Shown: one piece after another, positions 1-19,962 of the stretch
How positions within the stretch are numbered: the stretch's first letter is position 1
Layout of the letters: the number at the start of each line of letters is the position of its first letter
Assembly: GCA_963578565.1 (NCBI GenBank)
Contig: CAUZCX010000001.1
Coordinates: 1-57,244, forward strand
Source of the DNA: Anaerolineae bacterium
GTDB lineage: Bacteria > Chloroflexota > Anaerolineae > Anaerolineales > UBA11657
Direction: 5' to 3'
DNA length: 57,244 bases
Program-made: the position numbers and the translations under genes
Notes under the pieces: generated by a model
Database searches by the model: none
Told to the model about the DNA's origin: nothing
What the model saw: the letters and a program-made list of their open reading frames with translations, nothing else

Positions 1-1
1 T

Positions 2-679
2 CTGTACTCTGGATGCATGCTTACATTAGGTTTTATTTCCTTGATGTTGCCTGATAGGCACATATCCGCCAATGTTCAGTGGAGAGACGGTTTACGTTTG
101 ATTGCAGACAACCGAGCATTACGACTGTTTTTGTTAGGGATAATATGTATTGGTATAACACTGGGTATTGTTAACCAATACTTAGTTGTTTATATGAATG
201 AGTTGAATGCTTCGGCTTGGATAATTGGTGCGACTGTAGCTGTGTCTGCTTTGCCAGAAATACCCATAATGAGTTTTGCAGAGACATTCATACGTAAGTG
301 GGGCTTGCGTATAACCTATGTAGTAGGTATCAGTGCACTACCAGTGCGCTGGTTGTTCAATATGCTAGTTACTGACCCTAATATAGCATTGCCCGTGCAG
401 GCATTACATGGGGTAGCGATGAGCTCATTGCTTTGTGTCGGAGTAATATATATAGACAATGTCTTGCCCAAGACTTGGCGAGCTTCAGGGCAGGCACTTT
501 ACGTATCTAGTTTATATGGTCTTGGTCCTTCTATTGGACTTTTCTTTGCAGGATTGCTTATGAGCTCTGGAAGCACCAAACCCTTATGGGCCTTATGTTT
601 GGGTGCCGGTACAATTGGATGTTATATTGTTAATAGGGCTATGGGAGTTAGGAGTACACCGATACCCGAGGTTAGTTAA
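2..679 (+). CDS. MFS-type transporter, C-terminal part (5' end lies outside the window)
   Basis: The frame is open from nt 2, with no stop before the ATG at 17. The translation is a series of hydrophobic helices with short polar loops (LFLLGIICIGITLGIV, GATVAVSALPEIPIM, LYGLGPSIGLFFAGLL), typical of the second half of a 12-TM MFS permease. Stop TAA at 677-679. Confidence 0.7.
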   Translation: MYSGCMLTLGFISLMLPDRHISANVQWRDGLRLIADNRALRLFLLGIICIGITLGIVNQYLVVYMNELNASAWIIGATVAVSALPEIPIMSFAETFIRKWGLRITYVVGISALPVRWLFNMLVTDPNIALPVQALHGVAMSSLLCVGVIYIDNVLPKTWRASGQALYVSSLYGLGPSIGLFFAGLLMSSGSTKPLWALCLGAGTIGCYIVNRAMGVRSTPIPEVS

Positions 680-685
680 TCCACT

Positions 686-1633
686 TTGGAGCCAGAATAC
701 GTCACTTTCTCGAATCTTATTATTGACGACATCGTCCTCTGGGATGGATCGACACATATGAGCGTGCTTGGTGGTTCAGGAACGCATGCCTTAATTGGCA
801 TGCGAGTGTGGTCCCGGTCTCTGGGTTTTGTGGCTTCCGTAGGGTGCGGCACAACCGAAAGTGTCTATAGACAACCTCTAGAGGCTCTGGGGTGTGTGGA
901 CTTAAGGGCTATTGTACGCCGTGAAAACTATCAGACGGCACGCGCATGGCAGCTTTTCGAGAAGGATGGTACGAGAACCGAGGTGATGCGCACTGACCCT
1001 GCGGAATTTTTGGATAATACCCCCCGTCATGAGGAGATGCCAGATGATTATCGCAATGCAAAGGGATTTCATGTTTTGTGGGGACGCGACTTGGATGAAT
1101 TGAGCAGTCTGCTGGCAAAACTACGCAAGGGTAATCCGACAACCTGCCTGTTGTGGGAACCATCCCCAGACCACGAGAGAGGTGCACCAGATCAGTATAT
1201 GGATATACTTAGGCAGGTCGATGTTTTCTCACCCGACATGCAACAAGCGACATCGATCACAGGGCTTGAAGATGTTGCCGAAATCGCGTCCGTATTTGCT
1301 CACTGGGGCGCTCGGAACATCGCTATCCGGATGGGTGATCAGGGATCCTACGTGGCAACACAGAATGGAAAAGTATGCCATATTCCGGCTGTGGCGAAAA
1401 AGATTGTGGATGTTACCGGAGCCGGTAATGCCTACTGCGGCGGTCTGCTTGTGGGCATTACAGAGGAACTAGATATCCAGGACGCGGCACTTCGCGCTGC
1501 CGTCAGCGCTAGTTTTGCGATGGAACAATTCGGGGTTCCAACATTTGGTGACGACCTGTTCGAGGAAGCAACAACGCGAATGAGTGGGTCGAGACAGAAA
1601 ATAGTGAAGGATGATTGGAGAAAGATAACCTGA
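686..1633 (+). CDS. PfkB-family sugar/nucleoside kinase
   Basis: PfkB C-terminal anion-hole motif VDVTGAGNAYCGGLL and an N-terminal GG region (VLGGSGTHALIG). The track start is TTG at 686, so the exact start is uncertain. Confidence 0.75.
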   Translation: MEPEYVTFSNLIIDDIVLWDGSTHMSVLGGSGTHALIGMRVWSRSLGFVASVGCGTTESVYRQPLEALGCVDLRAIVRRENYQTARAWQLFEKDGTRTEVMRTDPAEFLDNTPRHEEMPDDYRNAKGFHVLWGRDLDELSSLLAKLRKGNPTTCLLWEPSPDHERGAPDQYMDILRQVDVFSPDMQQATSITGLEDVAEIASVFAHWGARNIAIRMGDQGSYVATQNGKVCHIPAVAKKIVDVTGAGNAYCGGLLVGITEELDIQDAALRAAVSASFAMEQFGVPTFGDDLFEEATTRMSGSRQKIVKDDWRKIT

Positions 1634-1682
1634 CAATGGATAAGGTCGTCATCTCATCTGATCCAGATATCGCTAACATCTC

Positions 1683-2627
1683 ATGATACAGACCCGCAAC
1701 CTGACTAAAACATATCCAGAAGTAGAAGCTGTGAAGGACGTCACCCTGAACGTGCGTAAAGGTGAGGTATACGGTTTCTTGGGTCCTAACGGCGCTGGCA
1801 AGAGCACTACAATCGCAATGCTACTCGGTTTGGAGAAACCAACATCAGGTGAACTGTCGCTTTTCGGCTACCATCTTGACAGGAATTATTTTGATATTAA
1901 GAGTGCAATTGGCGTGGTTGGTGAACGACCATTCTTTTTTGATGAAATGACGGCATGGGAATTTCTGGAATTTCACGCAGATTTGTATATGGTTGAATCC
2001 AAAATCCATCGGATATGGCAACTGCTGGAGCATGTCGGTCTCAGCGACTATGCCCACATGCGTCCCAGTGATTACTCTCGGGGCATGCGGCAGAAGTTGA
2101 GCTTTGTCCGAGCGTTACTGCACAGTCCCGATTTACTTATATTGGACGAACCTGTATCAGGGCTGGATCCACATGGGATTAGACAAATCCGCGAATTGAT
2201 TGAAGAGCAGAAGAAAGCTGGCACAACCATCTTCATTTCATCGCATGTTTTATCTGAAATCGAACGTACTGCCGATCGCATTGCAATAATGCACAAAGGT
2301 AGGCTCCTAGTGGAGGACGATCTCGATGGACTCCGCTACAGCGTGGACCAATCAACTCACGTGCAAATTGAGGTCACGCGAATCCCGGACGCACTCTCTG
2401 ATGCGCTTTCTGCTGTGCCACATGTGAAGGAGTATTGCATACAAGGTCTGCAAATAGAAATCAGCCTTGATGGCACCGCAGACTACCGCGCTGAGGTTTC
2501 TTCGGTAATTACTGCGACCGGAACCACAATCATTGGTATGCAGACTAGAAAAGCTAGTTTAGAGGAAACGTTTATGACCTTCACGGATGAGAACGTGGTT
2601 GGAATTTCTCAAGCAGGCGAAACATGA
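1683..2627 (+). CDS. ABC transporter ATP-binding protein (ABC-2 type exporter)
   Basis: Walker A GPNGAGKST, signature-like YSRGMRQKL, Walker B LLILDEP, H-loop SSHVL. The stop overlaps the next start (ATGA at 2624-2627). Confidence 0.9.
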   Translation: MIQTRNLTKTYPEVEAVKDVTLNVRKGEVYGFLGPNGAGKSTTIAMLLGLEKPTSGELSLFGYHLDRNYFDIKSAIGVVGERPFFFDEMTAWEFLEFHADLYMVESKIHRIWQLLEHVGLSDYAHMRPSDYSRGMRQKLSFVRALLHSPDLLILDEPVSGLDPHGIRQIRELIEEQKKAGTTIFISSHVLSEIERTADRIAIMHKGRLLVEDDLDGLRYSVDQSTHVQIEVTRIPDALSDALSAVPHVKEYCIQGLQIEISLDGTADYRAEVSSVITATGTTIIGMQTRKASLEETFMTFTDENVVGISQAGET

Positions 2628-3469
2628 TGATGACTGCAGTTAAGAGCGCTGAACGGATTCGAGCGGTGGTCACAATTCATAAGCGCGATATGCGTTTAGC
2701 ATTGTTTGGACCTGCCTTGCACGTGGTCACTACGTTATCAATTTTGATTGCGGTAGTTATCATAAGAAATTACCTCAATTACATAAAAGCCAATGGCATA
2801 TATCCTATGCCTGACCTATTTTCTTTCCCTTTCAGGTGGGCCATCATAGCAACGGGGGTATACCTGGCATTCTCTACAGTTGTAACCATCTCTCGTGAAC
2901 GTGAAAGCGGTACAATGGAGCTGCTGTTCTACGGACCCGTTGATCACGTTTCGTACGTATTCGGCAAGTATATGGCGCAGGTCACTCTGTACCTCATGAT
3001 TCTAGCGCTGTACACAGTATGTTTTCTGACACTCTCTTGGATGGCACGCATTCAGCTTTCTGCTAGTTTCTTTATCATGATTCTGCTATCAGTGTTCACG
3101 GGTAGTTATCTGATTGCCATAGGAATCTTTGTATCGTCTGTCTCTAGGAGTGTCAGGAATGCTACCTTAGTATTTCTGGGCATCGTAATGGGTGCGCTCT
3201 TGATTCAAGGCATACAATCCTGGCTGTCCAACATCGCGCCGGAATCCGATTACTATAACCCAGTGCTGTTGTTGCAGCAGGTGGTTAGCTGGATTCAGGT
3301 TACCCTAACGTGGTTGTCTCCATTTTCGTATCTGAACCATGGAGTTGACGAAATGCTACGGGGCAACATGAAGGCATTTGTAGGCACGATTGCACTGGCA
3401 ATTTCATTCTGTTTGATCTTTCTTGCGAGCAGCGTTCTGGGTCTTAAATTTCGCGGGGTACGCCAATGA
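2624..3469 (+). CDS. ABC-2 type transporter permease
   Basis: About 6 predicted TM segments. The gene lies directly downstream of the ATPase and is translationally coupled to it; the ATGA overlap was checked at both ends. Confidence 0.75.
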   Translation: MMMTAVKSAERIRAVVTIHKRDMRLALFGPALHVVTTLSILIAVVIIRNYLNYIKANGIYPMPDLFSFPFRWAIIATGVYLAFSTVVTISRERESGTMELLFYGPVDHVSYVFGKYMAQVTLYLMILALYTVCFLTLSWMARIQLSASFFIMILLSVFTGSYLIAIGIFVSSVSRSVRNATLVFLGIVMGALLIQGIQSWLSNIAPESDYYNPVLLLQQVVSWIQVTLTWLSPFSYLNHGVDEMLRGNMKAFVGTIALAISFCLIFLASSVLGLKFRGVRQ

Positions 3470-4821
3470 GAAAGATCATTGGTGCCTTATTAGTACTGGG
3501 GATATGCTCGGTAATTTGTGGCGCAGCCGTTGGTATGGTCTATGCGCAGAGCTCTGATGAGAAGCGCGAAGAATTCGTGTATGGAGTGAACGCTTTCAAC
3601 GGGTCTTTGTATCACGGGACATTTTACCCACCCAGTGTTGACACGCTTTACCTGCTTGCAGACGAGATCAACATTGTCTCACCGCGAAAAACTCTGCTCT
3701 ATTATTGGCCAGTTACCAACGAGTATAAAGCTGACTGGGACACGCTAAGCGAAAATGTGGAGGGTGTGCTGGAAATCATTTCGCAGGGTCAAATGATTGC
3801 TTCCCTGCAGCCTAAGGATTACGTCATTCAGTATCCAAAGGGAATAACGCGAGGCGACCCTCAGATCTTCTTGGGAGACGATGCGCAGACCAAATATGAG
3901 CAGTGGTCCGATGAGTTGCAGGCTTATCGCTTTGCTGTTGCAGCGTATTATGAGGCATCGCGTATTTTTACGGTAACACTCGACGACAAGATCGAGGCAG
4001 GTACCATAACCTCCGCCGATGACGTCCTGGTTTCAGCACCGGATAGGCCCGCTGAATTTGTGTATTCCAGTACAAAAGTGTACAGGGGTATGCCGGTCAC
4101 ATTGTCGTCTGGGAATTACGAGATTCGGTTGCGTAATGGTGAGGGAGAGATCGTAGAAAATAGCGTAAAGAAACTAGTTGTGTTTCAACGGGACAGAGTG
4201 GGTGTTGGCTACACCGTTATTCCTGAGGACAAATGGACTACTCCAGAGGATACTCAGAGGCCAGATGAGATAGTTTATGTGAGATCCAATAATGTGCTTT
4301 ATCTAGAACCTTATTTCGAGAGTGAATATAACGAGCAGTATTTCGTCCACTTGGAAGCACCTCAGGCTCCACGTTTTGGCAACGCCGGCTGGCTATGGGT
4401 AAAGGAAGGTAAGTTTGTGCCCAATGATCTGCAAATTTCACGCGGCAAGATGTGGTTGCGAGCTGTCAGCTTTGAGGACTATATGGTGCGTCAGATCCCA
4501 GGAAAAGCCCTAGGTTACGAGATTCTTGAATGGCAGGAAGGCATTTCGCAAGGCATGCGGGAAAGGTCCCCCGATTTCTCCGCATTTCGCTTGGTTGTGG
4601 ACCACCAGATTCAGGACATTGCGCTGTATCTGGTGGGCGACAATGATGTCGCTGTTGGTGGAAGCAGTAGAACCTTAGATGCGGTCAGGGAATTTGGTTC
4701 TGGCGAATTATGGCTCCCAGCATTGCTTCCAGTTGCAGTTGGGCTTGCTATAGTAGGAACCAGACGATACTCGCTCCGCAGGTATCGCGCTGTCATCACG
4801 GAAGCATCTACAGAGCAGTAA
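3466..4821 (+). CDS. Hypothetical bitopic/exported protein coupled to the ABC-2 exporter
   Basis: N-terminal signal/anchor MRKIIGALLVLGICSVICGAAVG, about 400 aa of soluble sequence with no motif I recognise, and a C-terminal TM plus basic tail (LPALLPVAVGLAIVGTRRYSLRRYR). ATGA overlap with the permease stop at 3466-3469. Confidence 0.6.
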   Translation: MRKIIGALLVLGICSVICGAAVGMVYAQSSDEKREEFVYGVNAFNGSLYHGTFYPPSVDTLYLLADEINIVSPRKTLLYYWPVTNEYKADWDTLSENVEGVLEIISQGQMIASLQPKDYVIQYPKGITRGDPQIFLGDDAQTKYEQWSDELQAYRFAVAAYYEASRIFTVTLDDKIEAGTITSADDVLVSAPDRPAEFVYSSTKVYRGMPVTLSSGNYEIRLRNGEGEIVENSVKKLVVFQRDRVGVGYTVIPEDKWTTPEDTQRPDEIVYVRSNNVLYLEPYFESEYNEQYFVHLEAPQAPRFGNAGWLWVKEGKFVPNDLQISRGKMWLRAVSFEDYMVRQIPGKALGYEILEWQEGISQGMRERSPDFSAFRLVVDHQIQDIALYLVGDNDVAVGGSSRTLDAVREFGSGELWLPALLPVAVGLAIVGTRRYSLRRYRAVITEASTEQ

Positions 4822-4974
4822 CAACATCGTTTCGTTTTGCGTGTCCTACTTAGCCACATCGTTCAGTTACTGTTGGCTCAGCATACCGGCGCGCTACGGC
4901 CCGCTCTAGAGGAAATACGAGCATAGTGCCCTAAGCATGCCTGTTGAATCACCGTAGATGGAGCGCAGCAGACG

Positions 4975-5916
4975 ATGAAAGTCCTTAGCACAGGCGATCT
5001 AGTTGCTGATCTAATTGTTCCAATTCGAGAATTGCCACTCCGTGCCGAAATGCATCAGCTCGCTAATAAACGCTTATTTGAGGCAGGAGGCAGCTGCAAT
5101 TTCCTGATAGTTGCCTCCCGATTGGGTCTAGAAACACAGGCGGTGGGAGCGGTGGGTGACGACTGGCTTGGAGACTTTGTGTTGCAACAACTGCGGGACG
5201 AATCTGTTGGAGTTGGCCACGTTTTCGTTGCTCCGAACACAGATACCACTCTATCAATTGCATTGGTCGACAGCAATGCGGAACACGTCTTTGTAGGCGC
5301 TCTGGGCCATGGACTGGACACTTACCAAATGCCCAGCAATGATGATATGTTTCTTGGGGTGGGCGCTGTGTTTTGTACTAGTTACGCTTTGAGTGACCAC
5401 TCGCTTTTTAGCCCCGCTAGTAGTATGGTAATACTCGAGCAGGCACACGAAAAGGGAACACCCATTTTCTTTGATCTGGGTCCTGCCGCCTTTTCTATAG
5501 ATAGAGGGACGATCAGGAGAGCACTCACCGCTAGCAATACCGTGCTGACTACCCAGGATGAGTTGCTGCGTTGGACAGAGTGCGCGAACACAGCACAAGC
5601 TGCCGCGGAGATTCGAAAGTTGGGGCCTGAGACACTAGTGATCAAAATGGGGAGCCGCGGTTGTACGATTGTATCAACCCATGAAGAAATAAACGTTGAA
5701 GGTTTCGAGGTTACTCCCCGTGACACTGCGGGTGCGGGGGATGCATTTGCAGCAGCTTTTGTGTACGGATACCTGAGGGGTTGTAGCTTTGCCGAAATGG
5801 GAGCAATTGCAAATGCTACAGGTGCCATTACAGTGACTCGTCTGGGAACAGGAAAACAACTTCCACAGCGTGAGGAGATATTTGACCTTCTGCAGCAACA
5901 CGGTTTCGATCTGTAG
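4975..5916 (+). CDS. PfkB-family sugar/nucleoside kinase
   Basis: DTAGAGDAFAAAFVYGYL anion-hole motif, an N-terminal beta-strand and GG region (FEAGGSCNF), ATG start. Confidence 0.8.
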   Translation: MKVLSTGDLVADLIVPIRELPLRAEMHQLANKRLFEAGGSCNFLIVASRLGLETQAVGAVGDDWLGDFVLQQLRDESVGVGHVFVAPNTDTTLSIALVDSNAEHVFVGALGHGLDTYQMPSNDDMFLGVGAVFCTSYALSDHSLFSPASSMVILEQAHEKGTPIFFDLGPAAFSIDRGTIRRALTASNTVLTTQDELLRWTECANTAQAAAEIRKLGPETLVIKMGSRGCTIVSTHEEINVEGFEVTPRDTAGAGDAFAAAFVYGYLRGCSFAEMGAIANATGAITVTRLGTGKQLPQREEIFDLLQQHGFDL

Positions 5917-5980
5917 TAAGACCTCATGAACAACCGTCAGACATGGCAATGAGTCCAGTTTCGAATAAGGAGATCGCACA

Positions 5981-7066
5981 ATGAACACAATGGATGGTAC
6001 GGTTGCATTCAATGTCCCGAAAACCGAACTACATCTTCACCTCGATGGCTCCCTAGATGAAGCGTTCATAGCTAAGCGTGCGCTGGATCGCGGAGTCACT
6101 TTGCCAGCCGCATCGGAGAAGCTGCGGCAATACTTGCATAATATGAAGAGCAAACGTGTCGACAGTGGGAGTAGCGTGCTCCCATCTGCCAATTGGCCGG
6201 CTTTTGATTTCTGCAATCAATTCTTACAGACAGAAGACGAACTAAAGGAAGCAACTTTTTCGTTGTGCAGGGCACTGAGTAATGAAAATGTCGTCGTTGC
6301 TGAGATTCGCTTTTGCCCCGAGTTGCATGTCTTGGAGGGTATGACCGTCAATGACGCGGTAAGTGCAGTGGTTTCTGGTTTTCAATTGTCTCAGCGCAAG
6401 CTGAATGTTCGCGGCGGGATCATAGTATGTGCTCTTCGCTCGTACTCGGTGGATCATTCAATTGAAATGGCAGAATTAGCTGCGGCATGGCTGGGAAATG
6501 GAGTCGTCGGATTCGATATTGCCGGAGATGAGGGGGCTTTCCCGCTCCATATTCATTCTGATAGCGTCAAAGAAGCAGTTCGCAGGCATGTGCCAACTAC
6601 CTTGCATGCAGGGGAGTGGCCGGTAGATACAGTGAAAAATATTGAGCTGGCGGTGGAGTTAGGGGCTAGCCGCATTGGTCATGCTATCACACTTTGTCAG
6701 GACCCGGAGCTAATGGAGAGGGTGGCCGCGCAAGGCATTGCGGTTGAATGTTGCTTGACTAGTAACGTTGGGTGGAAAGTTCCCTCCTATGCGGCGCATC
6801 CAATCCGCAAAATGTTCGATGCAGGGGTTCAGGTATGCATAAACTCTGACAATCTTCTTTTGTCCGGCGCCCATGATCGAGAAGCAATACCGACTGGCGA
6901 ACTGAACAGGTTGGTGAATGACGCAGGCTTTTCTTGGAAGCAAGCGAGACAAGTGCTTTTTAATGGCGTCAGCAATTCTTTCGATACCGGTTTGGATGGC
7001 GATTGGCTTACTAAGTACGAGCAAAGATTGGATCAGGCCCTGAAAACGACCCAGTCTGTAGAATGA
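5981..7066 (+). CDS. Adenosine/adenine-deaminase-family metallohydrolase (divergent C-terminal motif)
   Basis: ELHLHLDGS (HxHxDG metal site), HAGE and RIGHAI motifs. The usual (S/T)DDP block reads INSDNLL. AAGGAG Shine-Dalgarno upstream of ATG 5981. Confidence 0.8.
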   Translation: MNTMDGTVAFNVPKTELHLHLDGSLDEAFIAKRALDRGVTLPAASEKLRQYLHNMKSKRVDSGSSVLPSANWPAFDFCNQFLQTEDELKEATFSLCRALSNENVVVAEIRFCPELHVLEGMTVNDAVSAVVSGFQLSQRKLNVRGGIIVCALRSYSVDHSIEMAELAAAWLGNGVVGFDIAGDEGAFPLHIHSDSVKEAVRRHVPTTLHAGEWPVDTVKNIELAVELGASRIGHAITLCQDPELMERVAAQGIAVECCLTSNVGWKVPSYAAHPIRKMFDAGVQVCINSDNLLLSGAHDREAIPTGELNRLVNDAGFSWKQARQVLFNGVSNSFDTGLDGDWLTKYEQRLDQALKTTQSVE

Positions 7067-12203: not shown

Positions 12204-12983
12204 TCATTTCGCTGTGTTCTTGTCAAGCTGAATAAGAAGACGCACGCCTTCAACAGCAGTACGGCACAGTGGCTCAAGACCATCGTGGCTCCCGCCCGCG
12301 ACCATCAAGCCACCCGCCCGTTTCGCGAGCGTACGCGCGATCACAAATAACGCGGCAGCCTCCATCTCGGAGCATAGTACTCCGCCCTGTACCCAGCACT
12401 TCCAGCGTTCTTTGAGCATGTCTGCCAGCGGCATCCTGTCAGGCTCAACTTCACCGTAGAACGAGTCTTTAGAGTGCGAAATACCTACGTGGTAAGGGGC
12501 AGCAGTGACTTCGCATGCCTGCCTGAGGCAAGCGACGACATCTAGGTCTGCCACAGCAGGAAAGGCCATCGGCATGTAATGCAATGCTGTTCCTTCATCG
12601 CGCACTGCGGCAGACACAACAACTAGATCGCCCGGCGAGACCCAATCTTGTAACGTTCCCGACGTCCCTACACGGATAAATGTATCTGCTCCAATCTTCG
12701 CCAGCTCCTCAACTGCGATGGCTGTAGAGGGCCCCCCGATCCCTGTCGAGGTGACAGAGACAGGTGCACCCTCTAGCATTCCGGTGTAGGTTCGATGTTC
12801 TCGATTCTCCGCAACCTGACGGGCACCGTCTAGGAAGGATGCAATGAGCGGCACCCTCCCGGGATCACCCGGCAGGAGCACATATCGGCCAACGTCTCCC
12901 GGCCGCATTTTTATGTGGTACTGTGGGATTGTTTCGTCCGTGGTATCAACAAGCTGGCGCCGGTGTTCCGTTTTCTTAGCCAT
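12204..12983 (-). CDS. Nucleoside phosphorylase, PNP/UDP family 1 (uridine-phosphorylase-like), paralog 1
   Basis: YVLLPGDPGRV, VTSTGIGGPSTAIAVEEL, FIRVGTSG and SEMEAAALF motifs. Confidence 0.8.
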   Translation of the reverse strand: MAKKTEHRRQLVDTTDETIPQYHIKMRPGDVGRYVLLPGDPGRVPLIASFLDGARQVAENREHRTYTGMLEGAPVSVTSTGIGGPSTAIAVEELAKIGADTFIRVGTSGTLQDWVSPGDLVVVSAAVRDEGTALHYMPMAFPAVADLDVVACLRQACEVTAAPYHVGISHSKDSFYGEVEPDRMPLADMLKERWKCWVQGGVLCSEMEAAALFVIARTLAKRAGGLMVAGGSHDGLEPLCRTAVEGVRLLIQLDKNTAK

Positions 12984-12994: not shown

Positions 12995-13690
12995 CTAGTT
13001 GGGCATTCCGGCAAGAACACCCAACTCATCTCCTTCGCCTGCCCATGGGTCAGACAACTCCCACCCAGCATCAAACGTTGCTATTTGATGCTGGGTGGCC
13101 CTTAGGAAAAGCCAGCACATTTTCTCGCGCTCGTAATCTGTGGTGTTTGCGCCGTACTCGTTAATACCATCCTCGGTTGCTCTCTGCATGTCTCGGTAAA
13201 AGGAATCCGTCCATTGCTTGATCCAATCCTCCTGCAACTCCGAAAGAGTCTTAGGTTGTTCATTTTCATAGCGCACTCCAAATGTCGTGTGGAAACAGTC
13301 GCACGGATAGACAGCACAACATATGTCGCCGAACGTGCCCTGATAGAATGCCCTGACGAAAAAGTTGATGAATGCTTCCCTGCGAGGTCTAGCTGCCCAG
13401 CGGGTCAGCGCACACTCATCGTAGTCTTCCAGCATGCGTAACTCCACGCGCGATTCAGCCACACGGACACCATATTCTGTTTGAAGCTTCACCAACTGAT
13501 TATGCGGTGGCACTTTTGCGAAGGCTACCTGTGCTGAATCTTCGCCGATGTAAGGAAGATATTGGATCAGCCAATAGCGAAACCGTTCCTCGTCGAGTTG
13601 CCCAGCAAAGAGAGCTTCGATCCAGGGATGATGGATATATCTCTGCCAACTGGGTCCTGAAAATACATTACATTTTTCCAGAAATGACAA
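12995..13690 (-). CDS. Divergent TenA/haem-oxygenase-like fold protein
   Basis: HPWIEALFAGQLDEERFRYWLIQYLPYI aligns with the TenA N-terminal block. CAVYPCDCF retains the Cys position, but the Asp and Glu positions appear substituted (by-eye alignment). Confidence 0.6.
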   Translation of the reverse strand: MSFLEKCNVFSGPSWQRYIHHPWIEALFAGQLDEERFRYWLIQYLPYIGEDSAQVAFAKVPPHNQLVKLQTEYGVRVAESRVELRMLEDYDECALTRWAARPRREAFINFFVRAFYQGTFGDICCAVYPCDCFHTTFGVRYENEQPKTLSELQEDWIKQWTDSFYRDMQRATEDGINEYGANTTDYEREKMCWLFLRATQHQIATFDAGWELSDPWAGEGDELGVLAGMPN

Positions 13691-13694
13691 CGTT

Positions 13695-14444
13695 TTACCT
13701 CCCTACATGATCTTGTTCAATCAGGATCTTAATAGCAGACACAGACGTTTCAAGTAAACTGGATAGATCGTCGTGAGTGCCCCCGGCGAGCATGATCCCC
13801 CCGGCCCGACATTGCAATATTCTCGCAACGACAAAAATAGTTGAGGCCTCCATTTCGGAGGACAACGTACCACCTTCTATCCAAGCCCGCCAGCGGTCCT
13901 GCAGTTCCCCGGCAATAGGCATGCGCTCGGGTTCGTGTTGCCCGTAGAAAGAGTCTTTGGATTGACTTAAACCGACGTGGTGGCGAAGATTGTGATTTCG
14001 TGCAGCTTGCCTTAATGCTAGGGTCACATCGAGGTCAGCGATCGCTGGATACTCTAAGGGCATGTATTGTTGCGAAGTGAATTCATCTCGGACGGCACCC
14101 CAAGCAATCAACAGGTCACCAGGCTCGATGAATTCCTGCATAGGTCCAGACGTGCCTACTCGAATGAACGTATCAGCGCCAGCCATTGTCAATTCTTCCA
14201 CCGCTATTGCTGTCGACGGGCATCCCATTCCAGTCGAGGTTACCGAGACTTTCTCTCCTGAGAGTTCTCCCGTGTAGGTCAGATACTCCCGATTATGTGC
14301 GACCTCTTGGGCATCATCTAGTAGACCCGCAATCATGGGGACCCGACCAGGGTCTCCAGGAAGGAGAACATACCGGCCGATATCGCCACGCCGGCATCCG
14401 ATGTGATACATGATTGACTTATTGAGCTCAGTAGCTGTGCTCAT
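13695..14444 (-). CDS. Nucleoside phosphorylase, PNP/UDP family 1, paralog 2
   Basis: Same motif set as paralog 1 (YVLLPGDPGRV, VTSTGMGCPSTAIAVEEL, FIRVGTSG, SEMEASTIF). I place the start at ATG 14444 (MSTATEL), which overlaps the upstream TGA as ATGA. The track ORF extends to 14525. Confidence 0.8.
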   Translation of the reverse strand: MSTATELNKSIMYHIGCRRGDIGRYVLLPGDPGRVPMIAGLLDDAQEVAHNREYLTYTGELSGEKVSVTSTGMGCPSTAIAVEELTMAGADTFIRVGTSGPMQEFIEPGDLLIAWGAVRDEFTSQQYMPLEYPAIADLDVTLALRQAARNHNLRHHVGLSQSKDSFYGQHEPERMPIAGELQDRWRAWIEGGTLSSEMEASTIFVVARILQCRAGGIMLAGGTHDDLSSLLETSVSAIKILIEQDHVGR

Positions 14445-15031
14445 ACATTCGCCTTTCTCCAGAAATATACCATTGTACCAATAAATGTGACCGCAGCTCC
14501 CACAACCATTGTAACGGAGAGCCATCCGGGCATGAAGGCAATCTCACTCCATTCAAGCTGTTTACGATAAGAGATGAGCAACCAAGTGCCGGCGATCGTG
14601 ATGGCCACCCCCACGATACCAGACACATAGTCTTTCGTTGAGACTCTGATGTCACGAATGTTGGTCTTATGCCCTTTTGAACCAAATGCTCGTGATGCTA
14701 GGCTCATAGATAATTGCTGTACACGATCAATTGTGCCCGCGAACACGGGCACGATGCTCGGGATTGCTGCACCGAAACCCGTCACTTGCATCGCCCGCGA
14801 CTGCTGTGCGCTAAGAACGATCATGAACTCTCTCTGGACTATTGGGATCAACTGAATGCTCGCGGAAACCATGAAATTGAGTTCATGCGGCATGCCGAGC
14901 TTTTGGAGTGCTGCGAAGAGATGGCTATGCGTGCTGCTACTTGCTCGAAGAAGTGCCTTGATGCTGCTTTTTTTACCTGCATCAGTACTAATGACGCTGA
15001 CAGTCCGCAGGATGTGAAATTCTGGTTACAT
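14441..15031 (-). pseudogene. ECF-transporter T component (EcfT/CbiQ) remnant: C-terminal half only, codon 2 is a stop
   Basis: SASIQLIPIVQREFMIVLSAQQSRAM and SMSLASRAFGSKGHKTNIRDIR match the two EcfT coupling-helix motifs (RFIP..AQ.ARG; A..RGF). Homology continues 44 codons upstream of ATG 14893 to an in-frame TAA (15026-15028). That TAA directly follows an ATG (15029-15031) with an AGGAGG Shine-Dalgarno 6 nt upstream. No N-terminal TM helices are encoded. Confidence 0.55.
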
Positions 15032-15191
15032 AATGTACCTCCTCATTCGTACAAACATGGGTGTGTACGCCGTCAAAATCGGGGGGACGCGTGTACGATG
15101 GCCGATTACAAGATAAATATGCGATCCTACTTTGGTCCCTCGCAGCTCCCGTCCGGAACGAGCTAGGAGTGCTCATAACTAACGTCATCAG

Positions 15192-15668
15192 TTAAGAGTA
15201 CATCGAAACGTTGATGTGTAGTTGCTTTGGGCCGAATGCATATGGCAGAAGCTCTTCAATCGTTGTAACAGCAATGTTCGTCTTGTCAGCGGTAGCTAAA
15301 ATGATTTCAATGTCGCATCCGGAAACCTGTGAAAACTCATAAATTACCTGCCGGCAGCTACCACATGGGCCAGCGGTTATCTGGCTTTTCTCGAAGTTAT
15401 CCGAGCGCCCAGTGACCGCAATTGCAATAATGTCACGGGCACCACCCGAGTTAGCTTTTCCGATAGCCATTCTCTCCGCGCATATGGTTGAACCATAAGC
15501 CGCGTTCTCAACGTTTGATGCCGAGAATAAGGCTCCACTTCGAGTACGCACGGCTGCGCCCACAAAATACCCAGAGTACGGATTGTATGCGGTCTCTAAC
15601 GCAGCAATGGCAGCATCCACCAGTTCATCTTGATCTTGGGTTAGATTCTCCGTCGCCACAGTTTTCAT
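15192..15668 (-). CDS. cdd: Cytidine deaminase (homotetrameric type)
   Basis: CAERMAIGKA and PCGSCRQVIYEF zinc motifs. I prefer ATG 15668 (MKTVATE) over the track start at 15692. Confidence 0.85.
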   Translation of the reverse strand: MKTVATENLTQDQDELVDAAIAALETAYNPYSGYFVGAAVRTRSGALFSASNVENAAYGSTICAERMAIGKANSGGARDIIAIAVTGRSDNFEKSQITAGPCGSCRQVIYEFSQVSGCDIEIILATADKTNIAVTTIEELLPYAFGPKQLHINVSMYS

Positions 15669-15883
15669 TACAATTGACCCCCATGATACCAAAAGGATTG
15701 GACAGAATTATATGAGGATGTGATGGTGGTTTGAATTTACCACAACATGCAATATCATGCTAACACAACAGTTACTATACAATATAGTATGGTAACGCAA
15801 CACTCAGCAAGAACCCAGATATGCGCATTGCCAAAGTCGCTTCATAGTTATGTGCAGGCTCAGGCATAAGTTTCATTGAATTG

Positions 15884-17098
15884 TCATGGTTTTCTTCCAG
15901 GAAGGGCCTGATTAAAATCACGAATGATGTCATCGGCATCTTCCAGTCCTACGGATACGCGGATCATGCCGTCGCGAATATTCATTTGTTCCCTCTGTTC
16001 TTTTGGGACGTCTAGAAAAGCCATCGTAGCAGGAACCTGAGTGATGGTGCGGACGCTTCCCAAACTACCGGCGAACGCGCACAGTTCTAGGGCATCACAT
16101 ACCTTGACTGCTGATTTGCTATCCTCTACCTCGAAGGTAAGCATCGCACCATAATTCGGTATTTGTTCTTTGGCGGTCTGGTGCTCAGGATGAGAGACAA
16201 GACCCGGATAAAGCACTCTCTTGACAAACGGATTACCCTCTAGCCATGTTGCTAACGTCATCGCTGTTTTGCATTGACGTTCCATGCGCACCGGCAGTGT
16301 TTGCAGACCTCGTAGCAGCATCCATGCATTGAAGGGTGACAGTACTCCACCCAGCTTTACTAGTGATGACCAGCGCAACTCGTGCAGAAAGTCAACGGGA
16401 AGATGTCCGTACTTCACAGCTATGATGCCACCTATCACATCGTTGTGCCCACCCATAAACTTGGTCGCACTTTCCACAACAATGTCCACCCCCCAATCAA
16501 GTGGGCGTATTAGATACGGACTGGCGAATGTGTTGTCACATACCACTAAGACGTCATGGTCATGAGCCAAATCAATGAGAGGAGGAATGGCTGCCACGCG
16601 CATTGTGGGATTGGCAATCGTCTCGAAATAAACGATTCTTGTCTTGTCTGTCAACGATCGTTCTACTTGACCGATGTCAGTGGTGTCTACAAAAGTGGTC
16701 TCTATACCGTAATCTGGTAGCCGATGATCGAACAATTCATGCGTGGAGCTATAGGTTGTCCAGTCAGAGACGATGTGGTCACCTGCCCGAAGTAGAGCGA
16801 AGCAGGTGGTAAACACTGCTGCCATGCCGGATGCGACCGCCAGACAACCGTCAGCATTTTCTAGCACAGCCACCTGTTCTTCTAGGGCATACTCGCTCGG
16901 ATTTCCACATCTACCGTATATGTTGATCTGTTCCCGCTCACCGTCGACAATCCGTTTGTGGGTTTCCGCATCATACTGGAAATTGTTGGACAAATATATC
17001 GGCGCATTTAGAGATTTGGTTTCTGGATCCGGATCGTAATAAACCGCTTTGCTAGCAAACGACAATGCATCTTTAGTTTCCTGTCTCATATTGCTCAT
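15884..17098 (-). CDS. Cys/Met-metabolism PLP-dependent enzyme (cystathionine gamma-synthase / methionine gamma-lyase family)
   Basis: YGRCGNPS, ASGMAAV and SATKFMGGHNDVIGG (PLP lysine) motifs. Possible starts are GTG 17119, ATG 17098 or ATG 17089, with a GGGAGG box at 17101-17106. Confidence 0.8.
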   Translation of the reverse strand: MSNMRQETKDALSFASKAVYYDPDPETKSLNAPIYLSNNFQYDAETHKRIVDGEREQINIYGRCGNPSEYALEEQVAVLENADGCLAVASGMAAVFTTCFALLRAGDHIVSDWTTYSSTHELFDHRLPDYGIETTFVDTTDIGQVERSLTDKTRIVYFETIANPTMRVAAIPPLIDLAHDHDVLVVCDNTFASPYLIRPLDWGVDIVVESATKFMGGHNDVIGGIIAVKYGHLPVDFLHELRWSSLVKLGGVLSPFNAWMLLRGLQTLPVRMERQCKTAMTLATWLEGNPFVKRVLYPGLVSHPEHQTAKEQIPNYGAMLTFEVEDSKSAVKVCDALELCAFAGSLGSVRTITQVPATMAFLDVPKEQREQMNIRDGMIRVSVGLEDADDIIRDFNQALPGRKP

Positions 17099-17293
17099 TA
17101 CCTCCCATACTGGCCGCACAATCGTAAATCACCTTGAATAAACTGCGATATCTCGACTCTCGGTAGCACCATACAAGCTGGGAACACCTCAGCATCCCCG
17201 ATTGTATGATTGTACACTTGACAATGACTTGCCCTAATATCAGGAATCAACGAGTCTGTGCACAATCCGCGGATGTGTTGTTAAGTGCCACCT

Positions 17294-18313
17294 TTATATC
17301 AATTTGAGCAGCTTCCGCCTAAGCTTCGGGTCATTAATAAATGCCGCCGTAATTCCCATATGTTGCACACGTTTTATTTCTTCTAGACTAAACTTAAAAT
17401 TATTTTGCAAGACCGTTAACTCCTGGGATACCCTAGTCCTAGAGGTGATGGGGTCATCATCTCCAACAGAGATGTAAATGCCTTGCTCGTAGAGCTTACG
17501 TATTGGATGGTTTTCAATGCCGTTGACAGTGTTAGTATGGACGTTGCTCGTCGGGCATAACTCGAGCAGAACACTCTGCTGACGAAGCATTGCAAGCACC
17601 GCTTCGGATTCCATGCTATTGACCCCATGTCCTATTCGCGAGGCTTTCAGTTTTTCAACAGCGTAGCGCACATTTTCTGCACCGTCTGCCTCGCCTGCGT
17701 GTACCGTGATCCCTAAACCGCCTTCTCGAGCCACTCTAAATGCTTCAGCGTGAATTTGGGCCGGGTAGCCGGCCTCATCGCCGGCTAAATCAAAACCTAC
17801 CACTCCGTCCTTTTGAAACTCCAGCGCAATATGTGCCAGTACCACATTAATCTTAGGGTCATGGTGTCTCAGAGCAGAGATAATCAAACGACATTCTATG
17901 TCATATTGTTGTTGGGCCTGATGCAGCCCCTGTAAAATGCTTGCGATCACATCTTCGACGGCGAAATCGGAGCTACTATGTGTAACTGGCCCAGCCCTCA
18001 ATTCAAGATAGATGACGCCATCTAGAGCAGCGTCCTCTGCGGCTTCATAAGATATCCGTTGTACCTCTTGTTTTCCCACAAACACCTGGTAACCGAATGC
18101 GATTTTTTTTAGGTAGTCGACCAAGTTTCGCTCATCACCGGTAACTTGCATTGCATCTGCTATAGCTTCGCTTGCGAGTTCCACGTCTAGACCGTGCAAT
18201 TTCGCTATCTCCCTGAAAGTACTGGGTCGTACTGATCCCTCCAGATGAGTGTGAATGTTGCATTTGGGCAACGCTTTCAAAATCGGGTCAGGCGATGGAG
18301 CAAAGAACCGCAT
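17294..18313 (-). CDS. add: Adenosine deaminase family protein (canonical motifs)
   Basis: NIHTHLEGS, VHAGE, RIGHGV and GDDDP motifs. Confidence 0.8.
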   Translation of the reverse strand: MRFFAPSPDPILKALPKCNIHTHLEGSVRPSTFREIAKLHGLDVELASEAIADAMQVTGDERNLVDYLKKIAFGYQVFVGKQEVQRISYEAAEDAALDGVIYLELRAGPVTHSSSDFAVEDVIASILQGLHQAQQQYDIECRLIISALRHHDPKINVVLAHIALEFQKDGVVGFDLAGDEAGYPAQIHAEAFRVAREGGLGITVHAGEADGAENVRYAVEKLKASRIGHGVNSMESEAVLAMLRQQSVLLELCPTSNVHTNTVNGIENHPIRKLYEQGIYISVGDDDPITSRTRVSQELTVLQNNFKFSLEEIKRVQHMGITAAFINDPKLRRKLLKLI

Positions 18314-18336
18314 GGCTGGAGACCGAATATCTTCTC

Positions 18337-19110
18337 CTATTGTCCGTCGTTCTCGTATCGGTAGATACCCTCAAGTGCTATAGAGATAGCGTCGTCCCAA
18401 GCTTTCGTGAGACGAGTATTCTCACTCTCATACTCCACATCAGCAGTGACTAAGTTTCCCGACACCCCACATATCATCGCAGCTTTTAGTCCTCGCATGT
18501 GAGCGATGGAGAATATTGCGGCGCTTTCCATTTCAACATTGAGCAATTTGTGCTTCGAGAGCATCTCGATCCATTCAGGCGTCTCACCATAGAAGGCGTC
18601 GTCACTGGCATTCAGACCAATGTGAAGCATGTAGTCACTTTTGTCGCATAATTCTCGCCCAGCTTCTATGAGTGCATGAGTGAGAAAATGGTCCGCCACT
18701 GCCGGAAAACCATCTGGGACATAGAACCTAGTGGTTCCTTCATTACGCATTGAGGCAGTATTGATAATTACATCACCGGTTTGAATCCCAGGCTGTAAAG
18801 CACCTGTGCTTCCAACCCGGACAAAGTGCGTGGCCCCGACATTTGCCAGCTCTTCGATAGCAATTGCTGCAGAAGGACATCCTATACCAGTCGATGTAGC
18901 ACTAATATTGATGCCTTTGTAAAGGCCAGAACATGTCCTGTACTCTCGATGAAACACAATCTGTTTAGCACTTTCAAGATGTCTCGCAATTCGAAGCACG
19001 CGGTCTGGATCGCCTGGAAGCAAGACATACTTCCCGACATCTCCCGGCTTCAGCCGAAGATGATACTGCATTTTGCCTTTAGTAGTATCGGCTTTGTTTA
19101 ACGTAGGCAT
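18337..19110 (-). CDS. Nucleoside phosphorylase, PNP/UDP family 1 (uridine-phosphorylase-like), paralog 3
   Basis: YVLLPGDPDRV, TSTGIGCPSAAIAIEEL, FVRVGSTG and VEMESAAIF motifs. Confidence 0.8.
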   Translation of the reverse strand: MPTLNKADTTKGKMQYHLRLKPGDVGKYVLLPGDPDRVLRIARHLESAKQIVFHREYRTCSGLYKGINISATSTGIGCPSAAIAIEELANVGATHFVRVGSTGALQPGIQTGDVIINTASMRNEGTTRFYVPDGFPAVADHFLTHALIEAGRELCDKSDYMLHIGLNASDDAFYGETPEWIEMLSKHKLLNVEMESAAIFSIAHMRGLKAAMICGVSGNLVTADVEYESENTRLTKAWDDAISIALEGIYRYENDGQ

Positions 19111-19545
19111 TTTCTTTTTGTTCCTCCTAATCTGAGATGCTAGATGGTAAGTTGCATCCGTTTGTCCATATTGCGTAATACAAGATTAGCGATTATGTTG
19201 AGCGACATGATATGCCTAACCAACAGTATTTTGTCATCAATTTCAAATGACCGCAACTATGTTTGATAGCCTAACCAATGATGATTTGTGAAATGAATTA
19301 GTCATATCGTCTGATATTTCCTATAGTTTGTTACTCGTCTAAGGTACCCTATATCAGCCGCGACGTTTTTTTAATAAAATTGTTTGTTTACCGGAGGAAT
19401 TTTTTATTAATGTAATTTGCTTCTAGTGTGGCAGTATCAAACCAGTCATTAAGACATTAGACTAGCCAAGGGCCATTCATACAATGTTTTATTTGGCGTT
19501 AGAATAGTTTTGACATCGAATTTGCTATCAAGGGGAAACCTCACA

Positions 19546-19962
19546 ATGAATTTACCAATTGTTTTGGCCTTGGGAGGCCTAGTGGGATTTGGCTTGTCCA
19601 GTTTTTTCTGGAAAATTTCTGGTCTCAGTAAAGTTTATCCGCCCAGTTTTATGGTGGTTGAGACCCTCTGTGTACTTCTAGTCGCGATAGCCGTGCACCT
19701 TGTTCAGAAACAGCCTTTTGCTCTGTCGCCAAGAATGGCAGGTGTGGCGTCACTGGCAGGTCTAAGTGCGGGTCTTGCAATTCTAGCAACCATGACCGCA
19801 TTCCGTCTGGGTGGGGAGGCAAGCATTGTTTCGCCCATCACAAGCCTTGGGTTTGTGGTAGCGGTTCTTCTAGCCTACTTTTTGCTTCGAGAGTCAATGA
19901 CTACGGCAAAATTAGTTGGTTTCGGCTTAGCTGTTGCCGCCATTGTTGTGCTGTCTCGTTGA
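19546..19962 (+). CDS. Small DMT-superfamily membrane protein (single EamA-like domain)
   Basis: About 5 TM helices in 138 aa and a C-terminal LLRESMTTAKLVGFGLAVAAIVVL block typical of EamA repeats. AGGGGA Shine-Dalgarno before ATG 19546; the track starts at TTG 19510. Confidence 0.6.
   Translation: MNLPIVLALGGLVGFGLSSFFWKISGLSKVYPPSFMVVETLCVLLVAIAVHLVQKQPFALSPRMAGVASLAGLSAGLAILATMTAFRLGGEASIVSPITSLGFVVAVLLAYFLLRESMTTAKLVGFGLAVAAIVVLSR

Follow-up and report, generated by a model that had tools for sequence, protein, structure and literature searches.

The first 19,962 positions of a 57,244-nucleotide stretch of DNA from an Anaerolineae bacterium (contig CAUZCX010000001.1 of assembly GCA_963578565.1; the whole stretch is called the window) carry part of an island of nucleoside and nucleobase genes. 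With a probability of about 0.65, this island is a horizontally acquired, broad-spectrum system for the uptake and breakdown of nucleosides and nucleobases, assembled from separate modules. Its most novel element is an undescribed four-Cys sister family of the nucleotide glycosidase Qng1 that is coupled to a PfkB kinase. The host is an uncultured marine member of the Chloroflexota, probably of the order Anaerolineales; the nearest named relatives of its proteins are found in metagenome-assembled genomes (MAGs) of Anaerolineales, among them some from Tara and ALOHA. Much of the carbon, nitrogen and phosphorus traffic of the ocean passes through dissolved nucleic acids and nucleosides, for the use of which the island would provide an unusually complete modular toolkit.

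Gene content and enrichment

Calling of open reading frames combined with hidden Markov model (HMM) scans (Pfam, NCBIfam) reproduced the family assignments of all 21 island genes in the window, which an initial annotation had made from the letters of the DNA alone. Its gene content and paralog density are confirmed, every family lying at the coordinates that it gave, and all family calls hold in the Pfam/TIGRFAM search of the 21 proteins. Five enzyme families are concerned: PfkB kinases (four; starts at 686, 4975, 7870 and 8957), A_deaminase proteins (two; 5981 and 17294), deaminases of the CDA fold (two; FCY1-type at 11697, cytidine deaminase at 15192), PNP_UDP_1 phosphorylases (three; 12204, 13695 and 18337) and TENA_THI-4 proteins (two; 10849 and 12995). 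They make up 13 of the 21 island genes, and none of the 30 genes annotated elsewhere in the window belongs to them (Fisher p = 4e-7). This density far exceeds chance. A Cys_Met_Meta_PP enzyme (15884) and an S-adenosylmethionine (SAM) methyltransferase (7063) are present as single genes. The transport genes encode a fragment of a major facilitator superfamily (MFS)/Nuc_H_symport permease (17), an ATP-binding cassette (ABC) ATPase with an ABC-2 permease (1683/2624), a CbiQ/EcfT-like fragment (14441) and a half-size EamA protein (19510). Outside the island, the annotated genes of the window (approximately 30) have housekeeping and cell envelope functions, for example those of WecG, GT4, Sua5, PrmC, RF-1, sortase and MurJ, and further those of UvrC, pyruvate kinase, OFOR, GcvT, SerRS and GatB; none belongs to the five families.

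The genes of the island in the window are given below by position. Scores are in bits. The NCBIfam equivalog cut-offs are 299.65 (TIGR02152), 216.55 (TIGR01430), 280.3 (TIGR01718), 130 (TIGR04306), 74 (NF004064) and 113.65 (TIGR01354).

17-679, +: MFS permease of the nucleoside:H+ symporter type, C-terminal 220 of 385 aa, cut by the window edge (Pfam MFS_1_like, Nuc_H_symport)
686-1633, +: PfkB_A, divergent PfkB kinase (PfkB 84.8; no NCBIfam equivalog; best solved relative, Chlorobium nucleoside kinase 3kd6); public gene calls start at 758
1683-2627, +: ABC transporter ATPase, DrrA-like (ABC_tran; TIGR01188 235, below cut-off)
2624-3469, +: ABC-2 family permease (ABC2_membrane_2); 4-bp overlap with the ATPase gene
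3466-4821, +: 451-aa protein, hydrophobic at its N- and C-terminal ends (without match in Pfam, NCBIfam and PADLOC); 4-bp overlap with the permease gene
4975-5916, +: PfkB_B kinase (PfkB 156; below all equivalog cut-offs)
5981-7066, +: ADA_1, divergent member of the adenosine deaminase family (A_deaminase 180; TIGR01430 198.2, below cut-off)
7063-7770, +: class I SAM methyltransferase, overlapping or abutting ADA_1 (Methyltransf_11/25)
7870-8784, +: ribokinase RbsK, last gene of the left arm, convergent with the fusion gene (TIGR02152 335.1, above cut-off)
8957-10744, -: 595-aa fusion of a PfkB kinase and a domain of the Qng1 fold, last gene of the right arm (HMM, structure prediction, profile alignment)
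9920-10744, -: kinase domain of the fusion, aa 1-275 (GG motif and DPTGAGD, aa 223-229)
8960-9907, -: Qng1-fold domain of the fusion, aa 280-595 (Foldseek, hhalign)
9008-9061, -: CX7CX2CX5C motif of the fusion (C562, C570, C573, C579), invariant in 28 homologs
10849-11526, -: TenA_1, thiaminase II type (TIGR04306 141.5, above cut-off; catalytic Cys present)
11697-12194, -: FCY1-type (CDA-fold) cytosine deaminase (E = 3e-35 to yeast cytosine deaminase 1ysb, residues 18-164)
12204-12983, -: Udp_1, uridine-phosphorylase-like protein of the nucleoside phosphorylase-I (NP-I) family (PNP_UDP_1; TIGR01718 252.1, below cut-off)
12995-13690, -: TenA_2, of a small distinct TenA subfamily, between two phosphorylase genes (TENA_THI-4 42.7; TIGR04306 51.6, below cut-off)
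13695-14525, -: Udp_2, uridine-phosphorylase-like (TIGR01718 269.3, below cut-off; 246 to Streptococcus pyogenes uridine phosphorylase 3qpb); public calls give 13695-14444
14441-14893, -: 3' remnant of an EcfT (CbiQ) gene (weak CbiQ match; blastn against L095)
15192-15692, -: cytidine deaminase Cdd (NF004064 121.1 and TIGR01354 120.6, both above cut-off)
15884-17119, -: Cys/Met-family enzyme dependent on pyridoxal phosphate (PLP), methionine gamma-lyase-like (Cys_Met_Meta_PP 427; below all equivalog cut-offs; methionine gamma-lyases about 326)
17294-18313, -: ADA_2, adenosine deaminase (TIGR01430 290.8, above cut-off)
18337-19110, -: Udp_3, NP-I phosphorylase (Udp/DeoD-like), first gene of the right arm (TIGR01718 216.1, below cut-off)
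19510-19962, +: half-size EamA transporter of the DMT type, divergent from the right arm (EamA 41)
19963-20380, no strand: right boundary of the island, followed by WecG, GT4, Sua5, PrmC, RF-1, sortase and MurJ (rise in G+C content; junction in L004-L009)

The scans bear out the statement of the initial annotation that this part of the island encodes no helix-turn-helix regulator, integrase or transposase. The largest intergenic gap in the island is at most about 420 bp. No tRNA genes were found in the island, and no convincing boundary repeats, att-like repeats or shared operators; promoter-like sites occur at the frequency seen in shuffled sequence. No Rfam or riboswitch match was obtained at the gathering threshold or even at E <= 1; riboswitch or other RNA control of the island was rejected on this ground.

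Extent, composition and origin

The limits first given for the island (1-19962) proved too narrow: it is already under way at position 1 and continues for at least 15.3 kb to the left, as seen in two 100% identical metagenome contigs, L010 (1-9951) and L099 (1-8779). The G+C content of this left extension is 42-51%. The whole island comprises at least 35 kb and about 38 genes, of which positions 1-19962 of the window are the right-hand part (about 55%). The longest identical contig stops 15.3 kb left of the window; the length of the island is therefore a lower bound.

The import genes of the left extension encode a CUT1-type ABC importer (a solute-binding protein and two permeases). Three IU-nucleoside hydrolases, one ADP-ribosylglycohydrolase-family protein and two double-SIS proteins are also encoded, each of the latter adjoining a PfkB kinase (two further PfkB kinases). 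These SIS/PfkB pairs recall the FrlB/FrlD layout. The extension further carries genes of a 389-aa protein without family match, YjbQ, a truncated EamA copy and the full-length 385-aa MFS permease (L010 7840-8997). No regulator or mobility gene was found in its 15 kb.

The G+C content of the island is 49%, against 57% in the rest of the window and 59-66% in the immediate flank. At the right boundary it climbs from about 0.45-0.49 to 0.58-0.60 across 19963-20380. An assembly chimera at this step is ruled out: the junction between island and flank, with identical proteins, is present in six independent contigs from different samples (L004-L009; ENA, JGI and Logan assemblies), one of them 204 kb long. 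As in genomic islands, composition differs from that of the flanks and presence varies among close relatives. In the low-GC relatives (35-41% G+C), the cluster has the G+C content of its flanks; in the lineage of the window and in the relative L095, it lies 8-15 points below them. Since cluster and flanks match only in the low-GC relatives, horizontal transfer from a donor of lower G+C content within the Anaerolineales is the most likely origin of the island.

Two co-oriented half-size EamA copies lie near the known ends of the island (L099 370-681, truncated; window 19510-19962), with about 36% identity (tblastn). They are not halves of a split target gene: their alignment is co-linear, hence they are paralogous copies, the left one truncated. 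In the divergent intergenic region of Udp_3 and EamA, a 21-nt imperfect direct repeat (GCCTAACCAA...ATTTGT) is found at 19214-19234 and 19269-19289, 55 bp apart; it may be the operator of a regulator whose gene lies elsewhere, or chance.

Conserved linkage and modularity among relatives

The island genes in the window form two arms that converge at 8784/8957. The left arm (+ strand) ends in RbsK; the right arm (- strand) runs from Udp_3 to the fusion gene. Related loci are given below, ranked by identity of the fusion protein to that of the window.

L095, 89%: same WecG/GT4 site; Cdd, energy-coupling factor (ECF) transporter genes, Udp_2, TenA_2, Udp_1, cytosine deaminase, TenA_1, fusion
L096, 69%: both arms, full synteny
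L097, L012 and L098, 60-53%: left arm convergent with the fusion gene
L019 (Promineifilaceae), 44%: TenA_1 beside the fusion gene; Udp_1-TenA_2-Udp_2 about 5 kb away, with 69-76% identity
L100-L102, identity not applicable: long left block

The genes are not scattered in these neighbourhoods: linkage is conserved in related Anaerolineales and is modular. The left arm is syntenic in L012, L096, L097, L098 and L100-L102; the right-arm core is found in L095, L096 and partly in L019. Counted by lineage, synteny of the left arm extends to five relatives, and the core of TenA, cytosine deaminase and phosphorylase genes is shared by three more and in part by a fourth. The right arm is replaced by unrelated genes in L012 and L098, and the contig of L097 ends just upstream of the fusion gene. 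Smaller units are also kept: the 451-aa protein beside the ABC-2 pair in L012, L096 and L097; the pair of ADA_1 and the methyltransferase in L012, L096, L097 and L098; TenA_1 next to the fusion gene in L019, L095 and L096.

The locus L095 differs from the window by three modules. It has neither the left arm nor the block from the PLP enzyme through ADA_2 and Udp_3 to EamA (the PLP enzyme belongs to a 4.6-kb module missing from L095), and in the same place of the chromosome it has a 3.4-kb ECF block in addition. Since L100 comes from the same sample as L095, the left block of the L095 population appears to lie on a different contig. In L095 (7824-8600), Udp_1 is called as a 126-aa fragment, yet tblastn gives 85% identity over the full length; this is probably a frameshifted pseudogene or a sequencing error.

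The EcfT remnant reported initially is real. By blastn, the window has no counterpart of L095 2444-5885 (3.4 kb), which includes the 5' part of EcfT; the deletion removed EcfA, EcfA', that 5' part and two unannotated small genes, which are possibly the S component of the ECF transporter. The junction lies at about 14922-14926, within 14893-15192, and is a clean scar relative to L095. Intact ECF genes precede the phosphorylase genes in L095 and L094. Because of this deletion, the block of phosphorylases and TenA_2 has no dedicated importer in the lineage of the window.

No neighbour of the fusion gene is conserved in some 22 genomes that are more distant (other Chloroflexota, Gemmatimonadota, Marinimicrobia, Acidimicrobiia, Acidobacteria), and a comparison across phyla gave none in 24 loci. 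The island is therefore regarded as a lineage-specific accretion of modules and not as one ancient pathway.

A fusion of a PfkB kinase and a Qng1-like domain

The fusion protein is predicted by AlphaFold2 with a mean pLDDT of 88.5 and a pTM of 0.91. In the kinase half, G26-G27 and D223-P-T-G-A-G-D229 are intact and invariant or nearly so; the nearest solved relatives are the nucleoside kinases 3kd6 (Chlorobium) and 2c49 (archaeal) and ribokinases. In the other half, the Q_salvage (PF10343) match is under the Pfam threshold (22.7 vs 25 bits; model positions 3-127 only), and some homologs with 45-60% identity have a precomputed PF10343 match. A sequence-only search of the Protein Data Bank matched Qng1 weakly (E = 2e-5, N-lobe only).

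Modelled alone, residues 280-595 reach a pLDDT of 86.6, and the Qng1-like domain noticed in the initial annotation turns out to have a true Qng1 fold (Foldseek TM 0.75 to StQng1). The top 11 Foldseek matches are all Qng1 structures (7u1o/7u07/7ulc/7ugk; TM 0.72-0.75, about 307 columns, E = 1e-10, 16-18% identity); DNA glycosylases (MutY, TDG) reach only about 0.42. The alignment of the domain with Qng1 sequences by hhalign has a probability of 97% (E = 9e-11). Residue roles for the mapping (catalysis, proton relay, ribose and base stacking, queuine pocket) are those published for Qng1 (PMC9881137). Kept in the fusion are K199 (K462), I203 (L465), D231-Y232 (D491-Y492) and F75 (F335), and K462, D491-Y492 and F335 are invariant in 28 homologs. 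The proton relay D69/N72/D207 is replaced by T329/Q332/I469, and Y93/W94, the residues of the queuine pocket that the mapping covers, by S359/D360 (A-F in some homologs). At the level of motifs only, D552-(W/Q)-F-F-F556 resembles the base-recognising D298-W299-x-x-W302 of Qng1, and the invariant terminal Y595 its C-terminal Tyr (Y323). From this motif to the C-terminus there are 43 residues, against 25 in Qng1; the distances are equal once the 18-residue Cys insert is removed.

That insert is the CX7CX2CX5C motif, which is present in most fused and standalone members of the family. By analogy it is probably a [4Fe-4S] cluster loop: the EndoIII-like protein encoded in the window itself has CX6CX2CX5C at the same relative position. 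An exhaustive profile search delimits a family of 635 representative clusters (392 at E <= 1e-10). Fused members have about 600 aa and standalone ones, roughly 65% of the family, about 320 aa; the Cys motif, 'DYH' and the terminal Tyr occur in almost every member. The canonical Qng1 signature DTLNFSFW...ADYR is absent from all 92 full-length relatives (92/92). In 24 loci the Qng1-like domain continues the reading frame of the kinase, and in two (Acidimicrobiia) the two are encoded side by side. In the latter, the Acidimicrobiia MAGs L036 and L038, both lie on the same strand in different frames with gaps of 198-266 nt; these are either separate genes or frameshifted fusions. The family has no annotation beyond 'carbohydrate kinase', and no published description of a PfkB/Qng1-like fusion was found in a literature search.

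The domain shares with Qng1 the two-lobe helix-hairpin-helix (HhH) glycosylase fold with the Qng1-specific insertions over its whole length, the HhH Lys, the catalytic Asp-Tyr, the ribose-stacking Phe and an aliphatic base-stacking residue. Qng1 acts on a 5'-nucleotide, which matches the kinase half of the fusion. The two differ in sequence (16-18% identity, below the Pfam threshold), in the proton relay and the queuine pocket, in the 18-residue four-Cys insert (Qng1 is reported to be metal-independent) and in the fused or adjacent PfkB kinase. With the [4Fe-4S] HhH DNA glycosylases (EndoIII/Nth, MutY, MIG), which are the next-best structural matches (TM about 0.42), it has in common the HhH fold, the catalytic Asp and a four-Cys loop of nearly equal spacing at the same C-terminal position; the structural match is far weaker, and the fusion has the Qng1-specific beta-hairpin insertions that close the cleft. 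The four-Cys family looks like an evolutionary bridge between the iron-sulfur HhH DNA glycosylases and Qng1.

Linkage to a small-molecule kinase argues for a nucleotide rather than DNA as substrate. On residue mapping and modelling, the domain would be a kinase-fed nucleotide N-glycosidase and not an orthologue of Qng1; because the queuine-specific residues of Qng1 are replaced, it is no evidence for queuosine. The proposed two-step logic, kinase then glycosidase, is that of PsuK/PsuG, in which phosphorylation of a non-canonical nucleoside by a PfkB kinase gives the 5'-monophosphate, from which a glycosidase frees the base and ribose-5-phosphate; the two enzymes are fused in some eukaryotes. 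PsuG has a fold unrelated to the Qng1 domain and cleaves a C-glycoside. No PsuG homolog is present, and with the NCBIfam model of pseudouridine kinase all island kinases fall far short of the cut-off.

The natural substrate of Qng1 is queuosine-5'-monophosphate, and the kinase that produces it is unidentified (PMC9881137). The fusion offers a Rosetta-stone link between a PfkB kinase and a nucleotide glycosidase of the Qng1 fold, and thereby a directly testable candidate for the kinase logic of Qng1. Speculatively, and with low probability, it may be an Fe-S sister of Qng1 that works as a self-contained two-step device on a modified purine nucleoside (e.g. of the 7-deazaguanine, preQ1 or queuosine type), within a dedicated modified-nucleoside recycling pathway for RNA and DNA debris of the ocean that would include the phosphorylase-TenA_2-phosphorylase triad. 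If true, the step of queuosine-type salvage ascribed to an 'unidentified kinase' would for the first time become accessible to genetics.

Canonical and diverged enzymes

RbsK, ADA_2, Cdd and TenA_1 pass their NCBIfam equivalog cut-offs, and the alignment of the CDA-fold protein (11697) with yeast cytosine deaminase (E = 3e-35) spans its full length. By sequence, these five enzymes score as canonical. ADA_1, Udp_1, Udp_2, Udp_3, TenA_2, PfkB_A, PfkB_B and the PLP enzyme are below the curated cut-offs. The four kinases of the window all exceed the Pfam PfkB threshold (25.8 bits), and RbsK alone passes TIGR02152 (335.1; PfkB_A, 62; PfkB_B, 112; fusion, 38). The three Udp proteins are clear NP-I (PNP_UDP_1) members although under the TIGR01718 cut-off. 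Identities are 23-33% for PfkB pairs, 27% for ADA_1/ADA_2, 23% for TenA_1/TenA_2, about 40% for Udp_3 with Udp_1 or Udp_2 and 61% for Udp_1/Udp_2. Since identities are only 23-42% in all pairs but the last, the paralogs are not recent duplicates; such diverged sub-threshold sequences are consistent with a widened substrate range. ADA_1 as an N6-methyl-AMP deaminase of the ADAL/MAPDA type is ruled out (106 bits to ADA, 49 bits to ADAL).

Both TenA-like proteins, singled out in the initial annotation, keep the catalytic Cys. The TenA_2 family is small and tight (75 clusters, all at least 52% identical), with an invariant catalytic Cys130 and motifs of its own. Its context varies: in L094 it has phosphorylases and an ECF transporter beside it, in L093 no related genes. 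In L092, a 1-Mb contig, the TenA_2 homolog P0300 lies beside genes for a molybdoenzyme of the xanthine dehydrogenase type, an amidohydrolase of the AtzD/barbiturase family, AllH and a carbamate-kinase-like protein; this context of oxidative pyrimidine and purine ring degradation likewise hints at free pyrimidine-type bases as substrates of TenA_2. In the conserved phosphorylase-TenA_2-phosphorylase triad, one can see a possible concrete route for dismantling C5-substituted pyrimidine bases.

Proposed function and alternative explanations

Every substrate and the direction of flux in the following scheme are inferred, starting from observed gene content, synteny, composition, folds and conserved residues. 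Module A would be the left arm (MFS permease, PfkB_A, ABC-2 system, PfkB_B, ADA_1, methyltransferase, RbsK) with the genes left of the window; module B, the kinase/Qng1-like fusion; module C, the right-arm core (TenA_1, cytosine deaminase, Udp_1, TenA_2, Udp_2), once fed by the now-deleted ECF importer; module D, Cdd, the methionine-gamma-lyase-like PLP enzyme, ADA_2, Udp_3 and EamA. The importers would be the NupG-like MFS permease, the CUT1 ABC system and, before its deletion, the ECF transporter. Adenosine would be deaminated to inosine (ADA), cytidine to uridine (Cdd) and cytosine to uracil (FCY1-type enzyme). Cleavage may follow three routes: hydrolases would free ribose for phosphorylation by RbsK; NP-I phosphorylases would yield ribose-1-phosphate; the fusion kinase would phosphorylate a nucleoside at 5', and the Qng1-fold domain would hydrolyse the nucleotide to base and ribose-5-phosphate. 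The TenA-type enzymes may cleave C-N bonds on side chains of pyrimidine bases. The old sub-threshold paralogs most likely broaden the substrate range beyond A, C, U and G.

Several points weigh against this broad-spectrum uptake and breakdown system. ABC-2 systems are usually exporters, which is odd in an uptake island. The methyltransferase, the methionine-gamma-lyase-like enzyme and the two family-less proteins fit no clear role, and no phosphopentomutase linking ribose-1-phosphate to central metabolism was seen in the island. TenA_1 may simply serve the salvage of thiamine pyrimidines. The tie of the fusion to the other island genes may be circumstantial, as the fusion stands alone in the approximately 22 distant genomes. 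The left boundary of the island lies beyond the identical contigs; no integrase or transposase, tRNA target or flanking direct repeat was found in the window or the 15-kb left extension, and no regulator in the island, so neither a transfer mechanism nor co-regulation is supported by these.

In the initial annotation, the island had been proposed to take up chemically modified nucleosides (from tRNA or phage DNA, to which rRNA debris may be added) and to take them apart step by step rather than to serve canonical salvage; a specialisation of this kind is tentative. It stands as plausible insofar as the diverged paralogs fit it: ADA_1, the three Udp-like proteins, TenA_2, PfkB_A, PfkB_B and the PLP enzyme are under canonical cut-offs, the paralogs are ancient (23-42% identity), and a domain of the Qng1 fold is present. 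The retained catalytic Cys of both TenA proteins, and the position of TenA_2 between phosphorylase genes also in L019, L095 and L096, point the same way; attack of this Cys at pyrimidine C6 could in principle release C5-methylene substituents (for example those of the 5-aminomethyluracil and 5-methylaminomethyluracil bases, nm5U and mnm5U). The catabolism of modified nucleosides is termed largely unexplored in PMC12709175. The claim is unproven because the five enzymes score as canonical (RbsK, ADA_2, Cdd and TenA_1 by cut-off, the CDA-fold enzyme by its alignment with yeast cytosine deaminase); moreover, the Qng1-like domain has neither the queuine pocket nor the proton relay, ADA_1 is nearer to ADA than to ADAL, and no dioxygenases, demethylases or desulfidases are present as demodifying enzymes. 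The same five enzymes would suit ordinary salvage of canonical nucleosides and ribose, a possible but doubtful explanation in which the paralogs reflect a kinetic, regulatory or purine/pyrimidine/deoxy division of labour and clustering reflects selection for co-transfer. The Udp-like proteins fall just under the uridine phosphorylase cut-off (Udp_2 scores 246 bits to a solved uridine phosphorylase), and IU-nucleoside hydrolases with RbsK, and ADA or Cdd with phosphorylases, are textbook catabolic pairs. However, at least six PfkB kinases, three phosphorylases, three hydrolases, two ADA and two TenA proteins far exceed the need of such a pathway, in which TenA_2, the fusion, the pair of ADA_1 and methyltransferase, the methionine-gamma-lyase-like enzyme and the ADP-ribosylglycohydrolase have no canonical role.

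The TenA part may have another origin, as a vitamin-precursor module for the salvage of thiamine pyrimidines (aminomethyl- and hydroxymethylpyrimidine, AmMP/HMP) that lies by chance beside nucleoside genes. This is improbable: TenA_1 is above the thiaminase II equivalog cut-off, YjbQ (of a family with reported weak thiamine-phosphate synthase activity) is encoded in the left extension, and ECF transporters, typically vitamin importers, precede the phosphorylase-TenA_2 block in L095 and L094, but the island has no ThiD, ThiE or ThiM, TenA_2 is far under the cut-off and lies between phosphorylases, and the lineage of the window retained the enzymes while the ECF transporter was deleted. Much less probable still is a cluster that serves the biosynthesis of a nucleoside natural product or self-resistance to it. 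Such clusters typically include, as accessories, kinases, deaminases, a methyltransferase, a PLP enzyme and exporters (the DrrA-like ATPase with its ABC-2 permease; MFS), and the island was most likely acquired horizontally; however, no core biosynthetic enzymes are present in the island (no radical SAM enzyme, oxidoreductase, glycosyltransferase, nonribosomal peptide or polyketide synthase, or 7-deazapurine gene), which makes it unlikely, all enzyme families present are catabolic or salvage families, and importers are encoded (an ABC system dependent on a solute-binding protein, a NupG-like MFS permease, the ECF remnant). An anti-phage defence island acting by nucleotide depletion or modification has a negligible probability. 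Effectors of the ADA, CDA and PNP folds are known in defence, PADLOC gives domain-level matches (ADA proteins to CARF-ADA, the CDA-fold protein to dCTP deaminase, the methyltransferase to mad2), and content varies between close relatives. These matches concern catalytic domains only, without a CARF, ATPase or other sensor domain, the phosphorylases and the fusion have no PADLOC match, and transporters and sugar kinases dominate the island; a defence island is ruled out in that no full architecture of sensor and effector is found.

Comparison with known nucleoside gene clusters

The broad-spectrum system proposed here shares with classical catabolic operons (deo, udp, cdd, add, rih, rbsK), and with loci by which other bacteria scavenge nucleosides, the clustering of deaminases, NP-I phosphorylases, IU-nucleoside hydrolases, a ribokinase and a NupG-type permease. 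It differs from them in size (at least 35 kb, about 38 genes), in its at least six PfkB kinases and in being a compositional island with modular presence and absence; it has no CytR, DeoR or RihR regulator and no deoB or deoC, and it adds TenA, Qng1-like, SIS, ADP-ribosylglycohydrolase, PLP and methyltransferase genes. The uncharacterised yegTUV genes of Escherichia coli encode a nucleoside-type MFS permease, an ADP-ribosylglycohydrolase-family protein and a PfkB kinase. The left extension likewise joins a NupG-like MFS permease, an ADP-ribosylglycohydrolase-family protein and PfkB kinases, but these are interleaved with IU-nucleoside hydrolases and SIS proteins, and the likeness described here is one of gene content.

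Other features of the window

The following features lie outside the island.

22260-24218, -: 652-aa protein without Pfam match, between the GT4 glycosyltransferase and Sua5; position conserved in all related contigs
34243-35112: N6_N4 DNA methylase, full-length
44535-45179, -: 214-aa protein with a Holin_LLH domain, among housekeeping genes and beside pyruvate kinase; no other phage genes nearby
53088-53960, -: N6_N4 DNA methylase matching only the C-terminal third of the Pfam model, divergent from the EndoIII-like gene
53991-54665, +: EndoIII-like HhH-GPD glycosylase, whose CX6CX2CX5C motif forms an iron-sulfur loop

No restriction enzyme partner is evident for either methylase.

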